A stretch of DNA of 64,000 bases from Synechococcales cyanobacterium VAR_4_metabat_354. Its GTDB lineage: Bacteria > Cyanobacteriota > Cyanobacteriia > Cyanobacteriales > Chamaesiphonaceae. Location: positions 1-64,000 of the forward strand of contig JANOQI010000036.1 of the NCBI GenBank assembly GCA_031414775.1, given 5' to 3'. A program made the position numbers. Positions 33,001 to 42,000 of this stretch are shown in pieces (position 1 is the first letter of the stretch; every line of letters starts with the position of its first letter).

Positions 33001-36000
33001 CGATCGATCCCCTCAATTATTTTGGGATTAATTTTTGTGGCTGCTACCGGTTTGGGCGCACCAGCTGGAACACTGGCGCTGGGAATTTATACGGTAGGCT
33101 ATTTAGGGAAGTTTTACCAAACTGCAATCGAGTCGGTCGATCGTTATTCGTTAGAAGCTTTGCAAGTTAGTGGCGCTTCCTGGTTGCAAATTGCCCAATA
33201 CGGAGTGATGCCTCAAGTATTGCCACTGTTCTTGGGTTACACCTTGTATATGTTTGAATATAATATTCGCGCTGCCTCGGTGCTGGGCGTCGTTGGTGCT
33301 GGCGGCATTGGCTTTGAATTGGTAAATTATATTCGGGGTTTTGAATATAATAAAGCAACGACTATGATGCTGGTGCTACTAGTAGTGGTGACGGTGATCG
33401 ATATATTGAGCAGTCAATTGCGCCGCCGCCTAGAACATCAATAAGTCATAGGATACAATGAATAATACATTACAACTACATGTGTTCTAAGGACTCAATG
33501 ATATGTTGACGACCTCTACCCAATATGATCGATCACTATCAACATTAGAATCAAACGAACAACGCACTGTCTTGCATCATATTAGCTGGCAATTGTTTGA
33601 GCAGCTTCTGACCGAAATTGGCGATGATCGTGCCATCCGATTGGCTTATTACCAAGGAATTCTCGAATTTACGACCCCGCTTTTTGCCCACGAACAGAGT
33701 AATCGTCTGATTGAGCGGGTAGTGAATACCTTAGTAGAAGAGCAAGGGATCGAGTGTACTCCGGCTGGTTCGATGACCATCAAACGTCCCGATCTAGTTG
33801 CCGGAAAAGAGCCTGATTCTTGCTTCTACATTCAAAATGAGCATCTGGTTCGGGATAAGGTGCGTTTGGATTTCAGTCAAGATCCCCCGCCAGACTTGGC
33901 GATCGAAGTAGATATTACACATAGTGCGATCGATCAATTACTGCTGTATGCCGCTTTGGGTGTCCCCGAACTTTGGTGCTACGATGGCCAGATTTTGACT
34001 TTTTATCAGCTAGTCGATGGTGCGTATATGGCAGTAGATCTATCGCCTACTTTTCCTGAGCTAGCCCCAGCCAGGGTTTTAGATTTTTTGGCAGAATGTC
34101 GATCGATTGGGGTGAGTAGTGCTGTTCGATCGTTGCGTCAGTGGATTCAAACGATGTAAATTATATTGCAGCAGGGTCTGAGAAACAAATGGTGATCACT
34201 AAAGCAAGCCTATTTTGAAGTGTAAAGTCATTCTCTGCCAAAAACGAAGACTAACGATTTTGGCCGCGAGGAACAAACCGAATTTCAATTCGCCGCCTTG
34301 CATCGTCAGCAATAACATTCTGTGATGCTAGTTTTCCGGAGGGTAGGTATAGTTGAGCCGCAGAATATGCCCGAAATTTAACCTCGTCCAATTTTTTTGT
34401 TTGCTGCAAAAATTGGACAACTGCTATAGCCCTCATGAGTCCTAGATCAGCATTAGAACCAGCTTTTAAATCAGTGATTTTGCCTTTCCCTGTAGCTGCT
34501 GAGGTGAGTTTCCCATCGAGATTACTGGCATTGCTAATTCCCTGACTATCGGTGTGACCGATTACTTGGATAAAGTCGATATTATCTTTCTTTGTTGCGT
34601 TCTCAATTTCGGGTGCAATGTTAGTCTCTATATACTTTTTCAGATCTGGTGTTAAAGCAGCACTTCCTGATGGGAATTTGAAGTTTCCAGATTTTTCGTC
34701 AATGATGATTGGAGAAGCAGATTTTAGTTTTTGGCTTATGGATAGTGCTTGTACAATATTGACAAGTAGTAGGAAACTAACAATCATAAAAGCATTTGAC
34801 ATTAAATCAGTAAATGCCTGGAATACATTTAAGTCTTCTTCATGGTTATATCGATCAATTTGCCTGGACATATTAGTATTTATTTGAATTTCTTTAGTTT
34901 GAGGAGATGTTGAACATACTATTTTTATTTGATCCCAGCTCTGATTTGTCAAGTACTGTTATTAATTTTGTGAAATGCTCTCGATCTCTCAAGCTCATCT
35001 GTGCGAGATGTTCCTTCATTGCAGCGAGTAGCTGCTCGTGAAAAGATCGATCGGCTGTGATTTGCTGATTCAAGATTTTTTGTAACTCCTGCCAACTCGA
35101 TCGATTGACTTCTTTTAGATTTTGTACTAGAGATTGAGTGGTATTTAGTGCTGTTTGGTGCTGTCGATCAAAATTAGCTATAGTAGTCTTGGAAGATTCT
35201 GAAACTTGCAGAGTGTTTTTGCTCAGGTTAGCTACTTCGCCCCCAAACTGTTGAAGAGTGATGGCTGATCTATTAATAGCCGTGATTGCTGGTTCTAAGT
35301 TGGCTACCACTGGTTGGATCTGTTGAGCCGATCGGCTGAAAACATCTGTTGATTTGGCAAAATCAGTTTGAGCTGCTCTCCATATATTTAACCCAGCCTG
35401 AATCTGTTGAGATGATTGACTAAAAGCATCTGTTGATTTAGCAAATTCAGCTTGAGATGTTTGCCATGTATTCACTCCGGCCTGTACATGCGGTAATAAT
35501 TCCACTAAAGTTTGTGTTTGTCCTTCTAAAGATGTAGCTACTTTTTGAAAGAGAGTTGCCCCATTACTAATTGTTTCAGATGCTTTGTCAATCTTACTTG
35601 TAGAAGATTGCCATGTTTTGTATACAGATTGGGCTAACTCTGCTGCTGTTTTGTTACTGCTGGTAATACCTTCAAGTGATATTTCTAAAGTTTTAGTAGA
35701 ATTAGTAAAAGCCTGTTGACTGGTATTCAGCTCTGTTAAAACTCGATCAATATTATGAACGATGTTGTTATTCTCTACCTTGCTTGCACCAGAGACAAAA
35801 CTAGCTACTCCAGTCTGGAGATGGGGTACCAAGCCTGCCATGATCTGGGTTTGAGATTCCAGCAAATTAGCTGCTTGAGAAAAGGTCTTTGCCCCATTTT
35901 CTATAGTTCCAGATGCAGTACCAATTTGTATGATGGATGCATCCCAACTCTGATAAACTTTTTCTGCGAGTTGGGCAGCGTTCTGGTTACTACTAGTGAT

Positions 36001-39000: not shown

Positions 39001-42000
39001 TCGCTGCGGAGTCGTTGGAGTAATTGCGATCGATCATCCGATTTCTGCACCATTCCAATTTCTTGATCGATTTTGGTACCCCAAGCTTTCAGAGCTTGAG
39101 CGAATGTTTTCCCATTATCCTGAACCATTCCTTGTAGACGATGAGGGAATTCTCGATCGATGCTAGAGTCACCCCACTTCGACAAAAAGCGATTGAGTAA
39201 TAGCCCTGGGTCTGGACTTTGCCCAATTCCTCGGAGCCAAAAATTTACTAGTCGCCGACTAACATTAGTCAATGACATTTGCACAATTCGTTCTTGAGGC
39301 GAATAGATCTTGGCTAATCCAAACGTCAGATATCGTTGGACATTGCGGCGAGGATGGCTGTCTAAACGGGTGAGTTTATCGCGGAAATTATCCTTCTGGC
39401 TTTTAATTACCGAAGTCAATTCATCGCCAAAGTCGAGGAAAATTTTGTGAGCGACGACATTGCAGAGCTTGTTTTTATCCAGAATCCGATAATCTGTCGC
39501 CGTGCGATTAGACAACACATAAGTGAAATCAAACGGCGGACGATCTTCATCCACCGAAATTAACTGCTGAGGATCGTAACAGACTTTAAACCGCGTATTA
39601 CTAGCCGCATAATGGTTTAACTCCTTCAATGCTGCATAGACATTGGCATTCATGCTGGGAGTATCGCCATAAAGTTCTGGACTAATTACCCAGTAGCCGA
39701 CTAATTTATTCTCAATATCTCCATAAGCCTTTCGCAGTGCATACGCCACATCCAAAAACATCCCGCTGCCAGTACCACCACAGAGTGAGCCGGCGACAAA
39801 AATGTTTAAACCAGACTCCACACCAAATCCTTGACCCAGCATGGCTTGTTCGTGCCCTCTGGTGCGATTTTCAGCAGTCTCAAATGCAGCTTTAATTTTG
39901 CGATAATTATGGAAGAAAGATAGTCTCCCCACGGGGCGAATCCCCCCAGCACCATCTTCGATCGCTTTCACATTCCGAACCAATTGTGGTGGCAACCAGC
40001 TTCTAATATGATCGTAGGGACTTTGACGCTCGAATTCACCCTGCGACTCCAATCCACCGATCAATTGGTCGATTTCTTGACTGCTCATGGTAGCAATTAC
40101 CCGTTCAGCAGGTGTGAACAAAATATTCTCACCCCGATAGGTATTCCCCGTACTCAAACCGGAAATGTCACTCGCACCTTTATCGGCATCAATATGGACA
40201 AAACTCACGACTGGCAAGGCATCGAGTTTGCCATAGCGATCAATAATCAACCGCCGAATCTGCATCAAAATATCTCGACCGGTGCCGCCCAAGCCGATGC
40301 AAAGAGTTCTCTGAATAGTTCGTGATTCTGTGGTTGGAGACATGATAAATGGCCTGATTAGTTAATATTGATAGTTAGTTCCAAGTCGCAAGACTGATGG
40401 GGATAATTTAAACGAATACGTTTGCCTGTCAAGATTTGACGTTGAGTGACTTCGCTATTTCGGTAATGAATTGGTAGCTCACCACTTGGCTCTAAGAACA
40501 ACTTATTGCCCTCTCGCCGCAGATAGCCTCGAACATCTTGCCCCCGACATTCGATATCGCTGCCAATGCCCAGCCTTTGCTTATGGCGGAGATAACAAAT
40601 CTGTGGCTCAGAATCATCACCACCCGCAATTGTTAGCTTCCAGGCTTGCTGGAGACTGCGCCAATGTCTAAACGACAAAATGCCAATAGCTAGTGTTGTT
40701 AATATTCCCAGCGAACTTAGTAAAATGGGCAGCCAAAGCTGTTGGAATAAATAACCATTCACTAAACAAGTTTCTTTCCCACCGGGAGCCGGAGTACAAA
40801 ACTCCTGCACTGTTGGCGGAATATCCACAATGCTCAAGTTGTAATTACTGATTTTTTGCGATCGTAATTTTAATGGCAGCGCATTGAGCCATTCTTGCCG
40901 CTCCTTACTAGCCACAGAGTTTTGCTGGCGAAACGGACTATTTGCTGGCGTTTCGACCCAAGTCTGTGACTTAATTCCTGGCTTGGTTAATAACGGCGCA
41001 TCCGTCAACCAAACGACCGATTGAGTTCTTATCCCTTGATTGGCCGTGAGCCGACACTGATTTAATTGAGCTAAATTCTTGTAGATGCTACTTTCAGCTT
41101 GCTGAATATCAGCATTTTGTTGGCCAGAGCGAGATGTCAGCGGCAGTGTTTGCAGAATTCGATCGACATCCTCCGGCTTTCCCTGAAAACGAATACCAGC
41201 AGTAAAAGGATCTACCTGTGGCTGAAGTGGATTCACCTGAGAAGCAAAAGGCACAACATAAACAGAGTCACCTTTCTGCAAACTGTCTTGGATGATTTGT
41301 TTCAGACGCAAACGCCCTTCATCATTCAAACCGACACTTTCAGTTAGATCGATCGCCAGCACCACATCACGACCTTGACCGACAGAAGCTAGCTGAAGAC
41401 CATTTTTTTGCAAGTCAGAGAGTTTTTGCTGGCTAGGGGCAACTTTTTGGCAACTTACTTGCACAAGAGAAATGCTCATAAGGAGAGAACAATTCTAGAA
41501 TGCCCATAATTTAGGTGATCGGTTTCACACCATCTTCAAATATTTTATCAGCTTCAGATAGAGTACTTTCTAGATTACGTGCACCATGGAGAACGCGAAT
41601 AATGTCGATCGTATCTTCAGTGAGTTCATAGAGAACCAGGTAGTTCGGGAATCCTTTGACGGTGTATTGACGAACTTGGACAACTTCTGGATTCGTAAAT
41701 CCGCTAAATCTGCCAATTCCAGGAGATTTGGCAATAAGTTGGAATGTGGCTTCGGCAGCATAGATAAAGCGATCTCCTACATCTAGGTTTTCATGGCTGA
41801 TGTAGGTGGAAATATCGATCAGGTCTTGAATGACGATCGGGCGCTTGACCAGTTGTGGCATGGTTATTTGCCTTGGCTGATATTTTGGCGTATGGTAGCA
41901 CGGATGTGCGACCAGTCATCTAGGGTTATGGGAGTGGCAGAGCCAGATTGAACACCTTCAAGAGCGAGGGTTTCAAGGCTGGCTTGGCGAGTCTGATCTT

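Follow-up and report, generated by a model that had tools for sequence, protein, structure and literature searches.

The closest described relatives of the locus studied here are the FtsZl1-vWA operons of Makarova and Koonin (2010). Additional file 5 of that study (PMC2875224) lists the order vWA, FtsZl1, 'B7' and COG1360 'Flagellar motor protein' for Anabaena variabilis (Ava_1847-1850), Cyanothece PCC 8802 and Microcystis, and also FtsZl1, 'MotA/TolQ/ExbB membrane protein' and OmpA for Deinococcus. In these operons, the third gene was left as the unnamed family B7, a 'membrane-associated protein', and the OmpA-like partner was read as a beta-barrel outer-membrane type; MotA, MotB and ExbB do not occur in the main text, where a stator is never mentioned. 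The ZorAB unit of the anti-phage system Zorya is a second point of reference, and the accessible text of PMC11946911 describes EcZorA Pro136, Thr147 and Ser184 and ZorB Asp26 in terms of a kink, an ion filter and an essential Asp. In the accessible parts of two further papers, an NTP-dependent role in conflict is predicted for tubulin/vWA/GTPase systems (Kaur, Burroughs, Iyer and Aravind 2020; PMC7159879), and vWA proteins linked to 5:2 motors are proposed as periplasmic force transducers (PMC12204202).

The window, a stretch of 64,000 nucleotides from Synechococcales cyanobacterium VAR_4_metabat_354, carries one of these FtsZl1-vWA operons in the same four-gene order. Reading the ORFs of the window gave four tightly spaced genes at 34251-41479, separated by gaps of 14, 56 and 22 nt:

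40358-41479, minus strand: gene 1, 373 aa, vWA-TM-FHA membrane protein
37131-40343, minus strand: gene 2, 1070 aa, FtsZl1 / Tubulin_2
34894-37074, minus strand: gene 3, 726 aa, ZorA-like subunit of the MotA/ExbB/TolQ superfamily
34251-34871, minus strand: gene 4, 206 aa, ZorB/MotB-like subunit

We interpret the locus as an accessory four-gene cassette that unites two modules, the vWA/FtsZl1 pair and a ZorAB-type unit, and we give this explanation, taken as a whole and with a role in conflict, a probability of about one in two. The four co-directional genes lie where the survey's finding had placed them, and its scores were reproduced: gene 3 matched PADLOC ZorA models at E = 4.8e-13, 4.1e-10 and 1.1e-8, gene 4 matched ZorB at 1.1e-9, and gene 2 matched Tubulin_2 at 7.4e-107. 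Genes 1 and 2 again had no match in the PADLOC model search.

The features of genes 3 and 4 are as follows:

36430-37074, minus strand: motor part of gene 3, residues 1-215, with three membrane helices
36736-36738 (Pro113) and 36703-36705 (Thr124), minus strand: TM2 motif LPNLLIAFGLIGTFLGITSNL of gene 3
36565-36567, minus strand: Ser170 in TM3 of gene 3
34897-36429, minus strand: cytoplasmic helical tail of gene 3, residues 216-726
35482-35814 and 35815-36147, minus strand: tandem duplication in the gene 3 tail, 111 residues, 68/111 identical
34806-34808, minus strand: Asp22 in FTDLMS, N-terminal membrane helix of gene 4
C-terminal part of gene 4, minus strand: OmpA-like peptidoglycan-binding domain (Pfam OmpA)

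A profile of 30 sequences covering the N-terminal 330 residues of gene 3 was compared with the PDB, and 8vvn_C came first (E = 3.5e-9), as it had with the earlier profile, followed by four E. coli ZorA chains (9.5e-6 to 4.1e-3). Zorya ZorA chains were the only membrane proteins found; none of the 35 matches at E <= 1 was an ExbB, TolQ, MotA or PomA chain. Structure comparison gave a broader picture, with ZorA chains as the top five Foldseek matches of residues 1-330, then ExbB, TolQ and PomA, and with the top 23 VIA entries all being TolQ, ExbB or ZorA (Z 9.4-11.5). Because all 18 distant family members tested likewise reach only 1e-5 to 1e-14 against the ZorA models, the gene 3 family stands beside canonical ZorA as its sister. 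B7 is a ZorA-type family, an identity added by this analysis. The distal tail is weakly conserved (8-21% column identity past residue 375), and column identity along the alignment revealed no fixed docking site there.

The ORF of gene 4 is open from a TTG (34251-34952), and its homologues begin at the position matching the ATG at 34871, which gives the 206 aa reported earlier. Pfam OmpA matched just above its cut-off (E = 2.3e-6, 28.3 bits versus 27.2), and the MotB-type matches in NCBIfam were all under theirs. In the PDB, the gene 4 profile matched 8vvn_B best (E = 5.2e-5), then PomB and MotB. The best matches of genes 4 and 3, 8vvn_B and 8vvn_C, come from the same solved structure of a type I ZorAB complex. 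The specific likeness to ZorA and ZorB that the survey's finding proposed is upheld by the profile and fold matches taken together with the conserved residues.

The other module consists of genes 1 and 2:

40766-41416, minus strand: N-terminal vWA domain of gene 1, approximately residues 22-238
41336-41350, minus strand: MIDAS motif DLTES in the vWA domain
40670-40750, minus strand: single hydrophobic helix of gene 1, residues 244-270, after the vWA domain
40361-40648, minus strand: C-terminal FHA-fold domain of gene 1, residues 278-373
39246-40304, minus strand: GTPase domain of gene 2, residues 14-366 (Pfam PF13809)
residues 17-22 of gene 2, minus strand: G-rich loop GLGGTG
39762-39779, minus strand: G-rich loop GGTGSG of gene 2

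Gene 2, the sole Tubulin_2 copy in the genome, scored 358 bits on PF13809, for which the cut-off is 27, in line with its earlier assignment as a 1070-aa Tubulin_2/FtsZl1 protein, and its G-rich loops do not vary among 25 sequences from both Tubulin_2 subfamilies. No Pfam family was found in the C-terminal region of about 700 residues, and the ESM Atlas returned only Tubulin_2 clusters for it, with scores up to 0.82. The product is read as a cytoplasmic, GTP-binding and probably polymerising protein of the tubulin superfamily with a long helical C-terminal region.

For gene 1, neither Pfam nor PDB sequence searches gave a match at E <= 1, and the earlier vWA call, including its MIDAS motif, is borne out by the fold. 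The AF2 model (mean pLDDT 85.7) matched vWA proteins (6fpy, E = 1.4e-4; 4fx5) and FHA domains in Foldseek, while VIA aligned it with FHA domains at Z 9.3-11.6 (rmsd 2.1-2.5 over 83-94 residues) and with the CLCA1 VWA domain at Z 10.0 over 134 residues. Among 19 homologues, D44, T46, S48, D124, Cys228 and Cys238 are invariant, and T123, T159 and D160 are nearly so (>=90%). The FHA-fold domain that the model predicts for this bitopic protein is an addition of this analysis to the FtsZl1-vWA operons. Lys and Arg number 24 before and 66 after the helix in these homologues, suggesting that the FHA side is cytoplasmic; the vWA domain carries no signal peptide, which is at odds with this topology.

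From these identities a possible mechanism can be outlined. In the inner membrane, two copies of the 206-aa protein would be enclosed by five of the 726-aa protein, the OmpA-like domain would anchor the 206-aa dimer to peptidoglycan, and a proton channel would lead via Thr124 and Ser170 to Asp22. Ion flow would rotate the pentamer with its cytoplasmic tail of ~510 residues, as proposed for Zorya. This movement, or a recruitment signal, may then act on the vWA-FHA anchor and on the tubulin-like protein. The latter would assemble locally at the membrane, most plausibly as a conflict (anti-phage) response to envelope damage. We are rather confident that the two modules work together and consider it probable that the stator is an active ion-driven motor. 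An anti-phage or conflict role is put forward tentatively, and the evidence from context is mixed.

To place the cassette among its relatives, we consider its spread across the order. The ZorA-like family was found in 134 of 301 genomes and Tubulin_2 in 130, and a tubulin gene followed by a ZorA-like gene on one strand in at least 64 of the 301, a lower bound because contigs break. The survey's finding that the system is present in about 4 in 10 genomes therefore describes each family alone, and the linked form occurs in about 2 in 10. In the linked form, the Tubulin_2 domain precedes the ZorA-like match by 1.9-6 kb. All 20 linked loci fetched had the order vWA, tubulin, ZorA-like; 17 of them included a ZorB-like gene in the stretch fetched, and in the remaining three it was 4.5-5.2 kb downstream.

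At least 38 genomes have a ZorA-like match without a Tubulin_2 match better than 1e-12, indicating that the stator does not depend on the tubulin. The ZorA/ZorB-like pairs stood alone in all 12 such loci fetched (ZorB-like gene adjoining in nine), and their positions are conserved, with recR, hisS or a DUF2201 gene as neighbour. Linked and lone ZorA-like forms are interleaved in the tree, requiring at least 4-5 changes. Tubulin_2 also has another subfamily, which occurs at 70 places in 65 genomes. It had no ZorA-like gene within 8 kb among the matches listed and no stator in eight fetched loci, where three of the eight upstream neighbours matched Pfam VWA. Stators thus occur without Tubulin_2, and this subfamily without stators. 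The survey's wording that the operon is driven by the stator, with a tubulin polymer as output, is not borne out as it stands and describes what may be the case.

The surroundings of the cassette bear on its role:

34148-42173, no strand assigned: variable segment comprising the cassette and ParDE
41511-41861, minus strand: ParE toxin gene (Pfam ParE_toxin 5.4e-11, above cut-off)
41864-42112, minus strand: ParD antitoxin gene (Pfam ParD_antitoxin 5e-7, above cut-off)

The ParDE pair lies directly upstream of gene 1 in the same direction, ending 31 nt before it, and is part of the same variable segment; it was not found beside the cassette at the 20 other loci examined. The segment is missing at the matching place in the closest cassette-less relative (G191), whose flanks, 87% identical, break off at window positions 34147 and 42174, both of its contigs ending just beyond. 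That place in G191 holds retron-type RT fragments (PADLOC RT-Protease_XI, 1e-63), a TPR protein and a DUF2281 gene. G+C is 0.39-0.42 over 34000-38999 versus 0.44-0.50 at 28000-33999 and 42000-46999. A value of 0.41 was also recorded at 47000-47999, outside the segment. Plasmid-borne relatives of the tubulin gene adjoin BrxL, caspase and CHAT genes.

One alternative, which we regard as unlikely but the strongest of those considered, is an envelope or membrane-remodelling machine with a physiological role, for example in repairing the envelope, in remodelling linked to vesicles or the septum, or in mechanosensing, in which the stator provides force or peptidoglycan anchorage and the vWA-FHA protein tethers a tubulin-like polymer; this amounts to the hypothesis of Makarova and Koonin plus a motor. 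The housekeeping-like places of the lone pairs (after recR in three genomes of three genera, after hisS in two) are consistent with it, as are the force transducer proposal, the lack of a nuclease or other classic effector in the cassette in Pfam and PADLOC searches, and flanks without clear PADLOC enrichment (17 of 108 ORFs at linked loci versus 7 of 59 at lone pairs). Against this, the linked cassette is patchy within genera, flank homologues are common to only 4 of 190 locus pairs and to one of five same-genus pairs, genes are broken in 4 of 20 linked loci, and the cassette here sits in a variable segment beside ParDE. The cassette is thus accessory, moving about and decaying in some genomes, and a dispensable, transferable function fits these observations better than a core one.

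It has also to be considered whether the ZorA/ZorB-like pair is a static, peptidoglycan-anchored scaffold whose long coiled-coil stalk merely positions the vWA and tubulin-like proteins. Assembly, ion flow and rotation of the pair are predictions, the 726-aa protein has no Pfam MotA_ExbB match at E <= 1, and the ZorA-model matches are modest (1e-8 to 1e-13). The residues of ion passage point the other way. Pro113, Thr124 and Ser170, set opposite EcZorA Pro136, Thr147 and Ser184 by the PDB profile alignment, do not vary in any of the 30 homologues, whose identity to the window protein is 27-71%. The membrane-helix Asp claimed earlier for gene 4 is Asp22, which corresponds to ZorB Asp26 by its place in the N-terminal helix and lies in FTDLMS, opposite FSDLMS of 8vvn_B. 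It is invariant, together with the GHTD, SNxDL..MR and RRRxEIRF motifs, in 20 of 20 homologues of 44-73% identity. Such invariance amid this divergence is not expected of a static scaffold, which makes that explanation improbable.

That two unrelated modules hitch-hike on a mobile segment with no joint function is very improbable, for although each module is found without the other, order and strand are identical in 64 of 64 genomes from many families, the gaps are short, and a tubulin-like/MotA-like/OmpA-like trio occurs independently in Deinococcus, where hhalign finds no relation between the upstream 418-aa protein and gene 1. In this second phylum, the middle protein of 411 aa matches the cyanobacterial ZorA-like profile in hhalign (93.6%, E = 2.2e-7), and RefSeq places a 'MotA/TolQ/ExbB proton channel protein' gene beside the tubulin-like gene of Deinococcus sp. 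QL22. The link between the ZorA/ZorB-like pair and the FtsZl1-vWA pair, with order and strand kept across genomes, stands. Its claimed novelty does not hold as worded, for the gene order was already in the 2010 table; the stator or Zorya reading was not found in the literature searched.

Returning to the two-module cassette with a putative conflict role, we compare it with the known systems. The systems in the accessible text of PMC7159879 likewise pair membrane vWA proteins with neighbours of the tubulin superfamily whose C-terminal parts are coiled-coil or helical. They are centred on GAP1-N2 or double GTPases and HSP70 in Firmicutes and Actinobacteria, unlike the cassette, and that text names no ZorA or MotA-type partner, its only 'Zora' being an author in the reference list. 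TolQR-TolA, ExbBD-TonB and the proposed vWA transducers, as far as the accessible text of PMC12204202 describes them, resemble the cassette in the genetic linkage of a 5:2-type motor to an inner-membrane-tethered vWA protein, and TolQ and ExbB match the motor part of gene 3 in fold (Z 10-11.5). In their vWA proteins, which have no tubulin partner, an N-terminal helix leads through a linker to a periplasmic vWA domain, whereas the helix of gene 1 stands between the vWA domain and an FHA fold; TolQ and ExbB also lack the ZorA-type long tail that the gene 3 product has.

Type I ZorAB (E. coli 8QYD and Shewanella sp. ANA-3 8VVN) is the nearest counterpart of the stator. Both A subunits share with gene 3 three membrane helices and a long cytoplasmic helical tail, at similar length (726 aa here, 729 in E. 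coli ZorA and 696 in 8VVN). The B subunits are alike in an N-terminal helix with an essential Asp and an OmpA-like peptidoglycan-binding domain, and counterparts of Pro136, Thr147, Ser184 and Asp26 are kept. The differences lie in the modest ZorA-model match, the position of the stator genes last in the cassette and the neighbours: no ZorC/ZorD, ZorE or ZorF/ZorG-like genes were found in the cassette, which instead encodes a tubulin-like GTPase and a vWA-TM-FHA protein, both without a match among the PADLOC models. Zorya is an anti-phage system; anti-phage activity of the cassette is putative. The cassette is a real Zorya-like variant, and if stator and tubulin are indeed coupled, it may represent a novel means of connecting a cytoskeletal protein to a rotary sensor.

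Four co-directional genes on the minus strand of the window, at 34251-41479, form the cassette described here, with gaps of 14, 56 and 22 nt between them. We analyzed the cassette together with its neighbours, and the survey's finding of a four-gene set combining a tubulin-like protein with a ZorAB-like pair was borne out by the genes, profiles, folds and conserved residues.

Features of the cassette and its surroundings
33503-34159, downstream of the cassette: Uma2 gene; its only PADLOC match at E <= 1e-5 is the candidate model PDC-S17 (2.4e-41)
Downstream of the cassette: putative phosphonate-type ABC transporter, read from translations
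34251-34871, minus strand: gene 4, predicted ZorB-like subunit, 206 aa from ATG
34894-37074, minus strand: gene 3, ZorA-like subunit, 726 aa
37131-40343, minus strand: gene 2, predicted tubulin-like protein, 1070 aa, Tubulin_2 E 7.4e-107
40358-41479, minus strand: gene 1, predicted vWA-TM-FHA protein, 373 aa
41511-42112, same direction as the cassette and upstream of it: ParE and ParD genes, both above the Pfam cut-off, ending 31 nt before gene 1
Beyond ParE/ParD, divergent: putative metH-like gene, read from translation

The ParE/ParD pair may share a promoter with the cassette; none of the 20 other loci had the pair next to theirs. Predicted promoter and terminator sites were no commoner than in shuffled sequences (13 vs 18.9 and 8 vs 7.5, respectively). 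The genome (3.56 Mb, 64 contigs) contained one Tubulin_2 match and one match to the ZorA-like protein, and none of the four cassette proteins scored above an NCBIfam cut-off. Uma2-family genes recurred around Tubulin_2 loci, both in the window (33503-34159 and 46612-47211) and at three other loci (L064, L069 and L081).

Gene 3 belongs, by its motif-bearing helix and its fold, to the MotA/ExbB/TolQ/ZorA superfamily, which provides the A subunit of 5:2 motors. Because no Pfam family matched it at E <= 1, this membership rests on homologue profiles and on the fold. Four PADLOC ZorA models matched the protein (4.8e-13, 4.1e-10, 1.1e-8 and 3.5e-5). A profile of the first 330 residues, built from 30 homologues, retrieved 35 PDB sequences at E <= 1, and the only membrane-motor proteins among them were five ZorA sequences: 8vvn_C, from an entry titled as the type I ZorAB complex of Shewanella sp. 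ANA-3 (E 3.5e-9 over 221 columns), and four E. coli ZorA constructs (9.5e-6 to 4.1e-3). The remaining 30 were mostly coiled-coil or designed helical proteins aligned to the start of the tail. A structural model of residues 1-330 (pLDDT 75.5) showed three membrane helices and, after them, a single long helix (217-324) reaching to where the modelled stretch ends. The five best Foldseek matches of this model were ZorA chains, followed by ExbB, TolQ and PomA, and the top 23 VIA entries were all TolQ, ExbB or ZorA (Z 9.4-11.5, 178-206 residues aligned), with helical hairpins below them. Since VIA Z scores under about 13 are weak for helical proteins, we gave the sequence evidence more weight.

The conserved residues agree with this assignment. 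The TM2 motif of gene 3 (G-x-x-G-T type) was invariant in all 30 homologues. The accessible text of the Zorya structure paper (PMC11946911) singles out ZorA Pro136 (kink), Ile144, and Thr147 with Ser184 (ion filter), together with ZorB Asp26. Pro113, Thr124 and Ser170 of gene 3, invariant in 30/30 homologues, align with Pro136, Thr147 and Ser184 of E. coli ZorA (EcZorA); counting along the PDB-profile alignment recovers EcZorA Pro136, Ile144, Pro163 and Glu164 at the right letters. In a search space of 1.84 billion, the N-terminal profile matched 3941 cluster representatives at E <= 1e-3, 494 at <= 1e-10 and 127 at <= 1e-30. All 18 distant members tested among those listed reached PADLOC ZorA models, only at 1e-5 to 1e-14, and six of them also gave weaker matches to coiled-coil models (JetC, LmuB, DruC, PbeC, HamA). 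The family is therefore a sister of ZorA and not canonical ZorA.

As in ZorA, a long helical tail, predicted to be cytoplasmic, follows TM3 (residues 216-726). It holds no significant Pfam domain, is rich in Ala, Thr, Ser and Gln, and matches the tail regions of PADLOC ZorA models at residues 476-712. It contains a 111-residue tandem duplication (window 35482-36147; 68/111 identical, 61%) that is visible at the protein level only, DNA-level repeat finders having returned just an 84-nt repeat in the region. The tail is the least conserved part of gene 3 in both sequence and length. Homologues span 504-815 aa in total, and those 83-85% identical to gene 3 measure 680-698 aa against 726 here, indicating that tail length is quick to change. 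A conserved tail tip serving as a docking site was considered and dropped, conservation being lowest in the distal tail.

Gene 4 has the predicted features of a ZorB/MotB subunit, namely a membrane helix with an Asp and a C-terminal OmpA-like, putatively peptidoglycan-binding, domain. It matched PADLOC ZorB (1.1e-9), MotB-type NCBIfam models below their cut-offs, and Pfam OmpA (28.3 bits, cut-off 27.2). A PDB search with a profile of 20 homologues placed 8vvn_B first (5.2e-5), followed by PomB and MotB, so that the best matches of gene 3 and gene 4 (8vvn_C and 8vvn_B) are partner chains of the same solved complex. Asp22, which lies in FTDLMS of the N-terminal membrane helix, and the OmpA-type motifs were invariant in 20/20 homologues.

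Directly downstream of the vWA gene, gene 2 encodes a protein assigned by its sequence to the FtsZl1/Tubulin_2 family (PF13809, 358 bits against a cut-off of 27), with predicted GTP-binding loops. The glycine-rich loops GLGGTG and GGTGSG are intact and invariant in 25 sequences. The C-terminal region of about 700 residues showed no known domain in Pfam or the ESM Atlas; the latter returned Tubulin_2 clusters only, with scores of at most 0.82, a range also reached by shuffled sequences.

Gene 1 had no match in Pfam, PADLOC or PDB sequences (a PDB profile search gave 0 at E <= 1). In an AlphaFold2 model from 19 homologues (mean pLDDT 85.7), an alpha/beta domain leads through a single long helix (239-277) to a beta sandwich. 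Foldseek identified the first domain as a vWA fold. Between them, Foldseek and VIA matched it to ITIH1, alpha2delta-1, integrin, 4fx5 and CLCA1, the CLCA1 VWA domain aligning in VIA at Z 10.0 over 134 residues. The MIDAS residues (D-x-S/T-x-S, Thr, Asp) D44, T46, S48 and D124 showed no variation across 19 sequences, and T123, T159 and D160 were conserved at >= 90%; two cysteines just ahead of the helix, C228 and C238, were also invariant. An hhalign comparison with those vWA neighbours of the other tubulin subfamily that Pfam recognizes gave a probability of 45% (E 2e-4). The N-terminal part is thus a vWA domain as modelled, with weak sequence evidence. The survey had described a vWA-TM protein, which the fold and the MIDAS uphold, and had missed a further C-terminal domain with a predicted FHA fold. 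This domain matched FHA proteins in Foldseek and dozens of FHA entries in VIA (Z 9.3-11.6, rmsd 2.1-2.5, 83-94 of 96 residues); G306, G313, R317 and R322 are invariant in it, and Pfam FHA is absent at E <= 1. Summed over 19 homologues, Lys and Arg within 15 residues of the helix totalled 24 towards the vWA domain and 66 towards the FHA domain, which by the positive-inside rule argues for a cytoplasmic FHA domain. This placement is at odds with the vWA domain, which has no hydrophobic N-terminal segment.

We searched an even set of 301 genomes from the window's order, and looked at ten plasmid records. ZorA-like matches occurred in 134 of the 301 genomes and Tubulin_2 matches in 130, of which 12 were weak (best E 4.9e-8 to 7.6e-6). 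Linkage was counted on listed places, 143 ZorA-like and 134 tubulin, after second pieces of one gene and tubulin rows weaker than 1e-12 had been dropped; a further 15 ZorA-like and 10 tubulin rows fell outside the listing. Among these listed places, a tubulin domain lay within 8 kb of a ZorA-like match in at least 64 genomes (hereafter "linked"), and in 64/64 it lay upstream on the same strand, at a distance of 1.9-6 kb that is taken up by the remainder of the tubulin gene. The order vWA, tubulin, ZorA-like was found by phmmer in all 20 loci fetched from genomes with long contigs. A ZorB-like gene was present in 17 of the 20, and in the other three it lay 4.5-5.2 kb further downstream on the same strand. 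At one of these three (L038 2-4420, G133:C1), an opposite-strand Uma2 gene (PADLOC PDC-S03) and a 1236-aa ORF, which matches ZorA tail regions only, lie between the ZorA-like and the distant ZorB-like gene.

A comparable arrangement recurs in Deinococcus. In D. deserti, D. radiophilus, D. sp. QL22 and D. phoenicis, a tubulin-like gene is followed by one for a protein of about 411 aa and then by an OmpA-family gene, an arrangement that the available part of Makarova and Koonin's 2010 table also lists for D. radiodurans (Additional file 5, PMC2875224). The 411-aa protein of D. deserti aligned with the cyanobacterial ZorA-like profile (hhalign 93.6%, E 2.2e-7), and the TM2 motif is common to both; a related-locus search with this protein found one locus only. 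A 418-aa protein upstream in Deinococcus was rejected as a counterpart of gene 1, the two not being alike. Given the constancy of order and strand and the recurrence in Deinococcus, the stator-tubulin link is conserved and recurs in a second phylum.

Each module also occurs without the other. Of the 143 listed ZorA-like places, 79 were away from any tubulin gene, and 38 genomes among those listed had a ZorA-like match with no Tubulin_2 match better than 1e-12. In 12 fetched loci of this lone kind, the ZorA-like protein (366-815 aa) occurred without vWA or tubulin, and a ZorB-like gene adjoined it in 9. Lone ZorA-like places recurred across genera after recR, after hisS and after a DUF2201 gene, suggesting that lone ZorAB-like pairs at conserved places are a core, unstudied envelope motor of this order. 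Cyanobacteria are not known to have flagella. Lone pairs at L052 (G129), L053 (G227) and L063 (G067), at L056 (G201) and L060 (G213), and at L054 and L055 (G126, G143) combined a ZorA-like protein of 366-528 aa with a ZorB-like protein of about 280-295 aa that carries a coiled-coil insert; the DUF2201 neighbour is a metallopeptidase/VWA-like gene. In L060 (8973-14444, G213:C1), two ZorA-like genes enclose four ORFs (736, 329, 248 and 446 aa) that may form a further module linked to a stator; Pfam DO-GTPase2 matches the 329-aa ORF weakly (2.5e-5, under the cut-off). A division of linked and lone ZorA-like proteins into two clean clades was rejected by a tree built from 30 N-terminal regions: the distribution of the two forms on it takes 5 changes, and well-supported branches force no fewer than 4 of these.

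The tubulin gene, too, occurs apart from the stator: among the matches listed, no ZorA-like match lay within 8 kb of 70 tubulin places, found in 65 genomes. Most of these belong to a second Tubulin_2 subfamily, 33% identical over the GTPase domain and about 15% over the remainder, and phmmer found no ZorA- or ZorB-like gene in the 8 loci fetched for it. The immediate upstream neighbour matched Pfam VWA in 3 of the 8, and two more aligned with those three. The core is therefore the vWA-tubulin pair, as Makarova and Koonin said, and the stator is an addition in one clade. The survey's phrase "driven by" is accordingly hypothetical: the stator could power the tubulin operon. Plasmid loci of Thermus oshimai and Meiothermus taiwanensis (L073 and L079) surround the same tubulin family with other partners, in the arrangement vWA, tubulin-like, a 677-679-aa protein and a BrxL-like Lon protease, adjoined in Meiothermus by Swt1 HEPN and DUF1156 genes. 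The 677-aa protein after the Thermus tubulin gene was rejected as ZorA-like (hhalign probability 0.3%).

The distribution of the cassette is patchy within genera. With flanks of 3-5 kb at 20 loci, only 4 of 190 locus pairs had a flanking homologue in common (1 of 5 same-genus pairs), and four of the 20 loci (L044, L049, L050 and L051) carried broken genes, with vWA or tubulin split or shortened and the stator genes whole. In the closest relative without the cassette (G191), the flanks are 87% identical to the window and stop at window 34147 and 42174, where the relative's contigs end. In place of the cassette it has retron-type reverse-transcriptase fragments (PADLOC 1e-63), a gene for a 455-aa TPR protein and a DUF2281 gene; the reverse transcriptase comprises two ORFs and is apparently broken (L076 1454-2704, G191:C30). 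G+C falls to 0.39-0.42 over most of the variable segment. On plasmids, Tubulin_2 genes have BrxL and a Swt1 HEPN gene as neighbours in Thermales, whereas in Azospirillum and Nostoc punctiforme the neighbours are caspase or CHAT genes. Flanks of the cassette showed no enrichment of defence genes, with PADLOC matches at E <= 1e-5 in 17/108 ORFs flanking linked loci vs 7/59 flanking lone pairs, a crude count in which many matches are to generic domains. A defence role may be inferred from homology and mobility.

The gene order of the cassette was published before but not understood. In the parts of PMC2875224 available, Makarova and Koonin grouped FtsZl1 with vWA proteins, GTPases, kinases and "OmpA-like" proteins, and the arrangement seen here already stands in Additional file 5, which tables the same four genes for Anabaena variabilis (Ava_1847-1850), Cyanothece PCC 8802 and Microcystis aeruginosa. 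The third-gene family, their B7, is a "membrane-associated protein" in Additional file 6; the GenBank label "MotA/TolQ/ExbB membrane protein" appears for Deinococcus in Additional file 5, and MotA, MotB and ExbB are absent from the main text. The accessible text of Kaur et al. 2020 (PMC7159879) places tubulin/vWA/GTPase sets among conflict systems, and no ZorA-type partner was found in it. The available portion of a 2025 paper (PMC12204202) proposes that TolQ-like motors partner with vWA proteins and involves no tubulin, and the Zorya structure paper mentions no tubulin, vWA or cyanobacteria. We found no published link between Zorya or ZorAB and tubulin in open full text, a scope outside which lie most subscription journals and bioRxiv supplements, where an earlier statement is possible.

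The described Zorya types I-III, as modelled in PADLOC, combine ZorAB with ZorC/ZorD, ZorE or ZorF/ZorG, whereas the cassette is without these partners. Genes 1 and 2 matched no PADLOC model at E <= 0.1, and ParE and ParD had no PADLOC match either. Having no Zorya partner gene by PADLOC, the cassette falls outside every described Zorya type. The survey had read the locus as a stator-powered, Zorya-like and probably anti-phage operon, an interpretation that is supported in part. The cassette is best filed as a Zorya-like variant in which a ZorAB-type unit is attached to the FtsZl1-vWA pair. A bolder reading, which we consider rather unlikely at roughly one chance in four, would make it a fourth Zorya-like kind. 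A ZorA5B2-type, peptidoglycan-anchored, proton-driven rotary sensor would then act without a nuclease: its output would be a tubulin-superfamily protein that assembles locally, in a GTP-dependent manner, on a vWA-FHA membrane anchor. Immunity or envelope rescue would follow from remodelling of the cytoskeleton or membrane where the attack occurs, and the mobile cassette would draw on the related lone pairs at conserved places as a housekeeping stock. If the modules cooperate, this would be the first 5:2 ion-driven motor with a tubulin-superfamily GTPase as partner, and the FtsZl1 family, without an assigned function since 2010, would gain a concrete, testable mechanism, with model strains on offer through the 2010 table. 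The notion of Zorya would then broaden as well, from a motor with a nuclease to a motor whose output is interchangeable.
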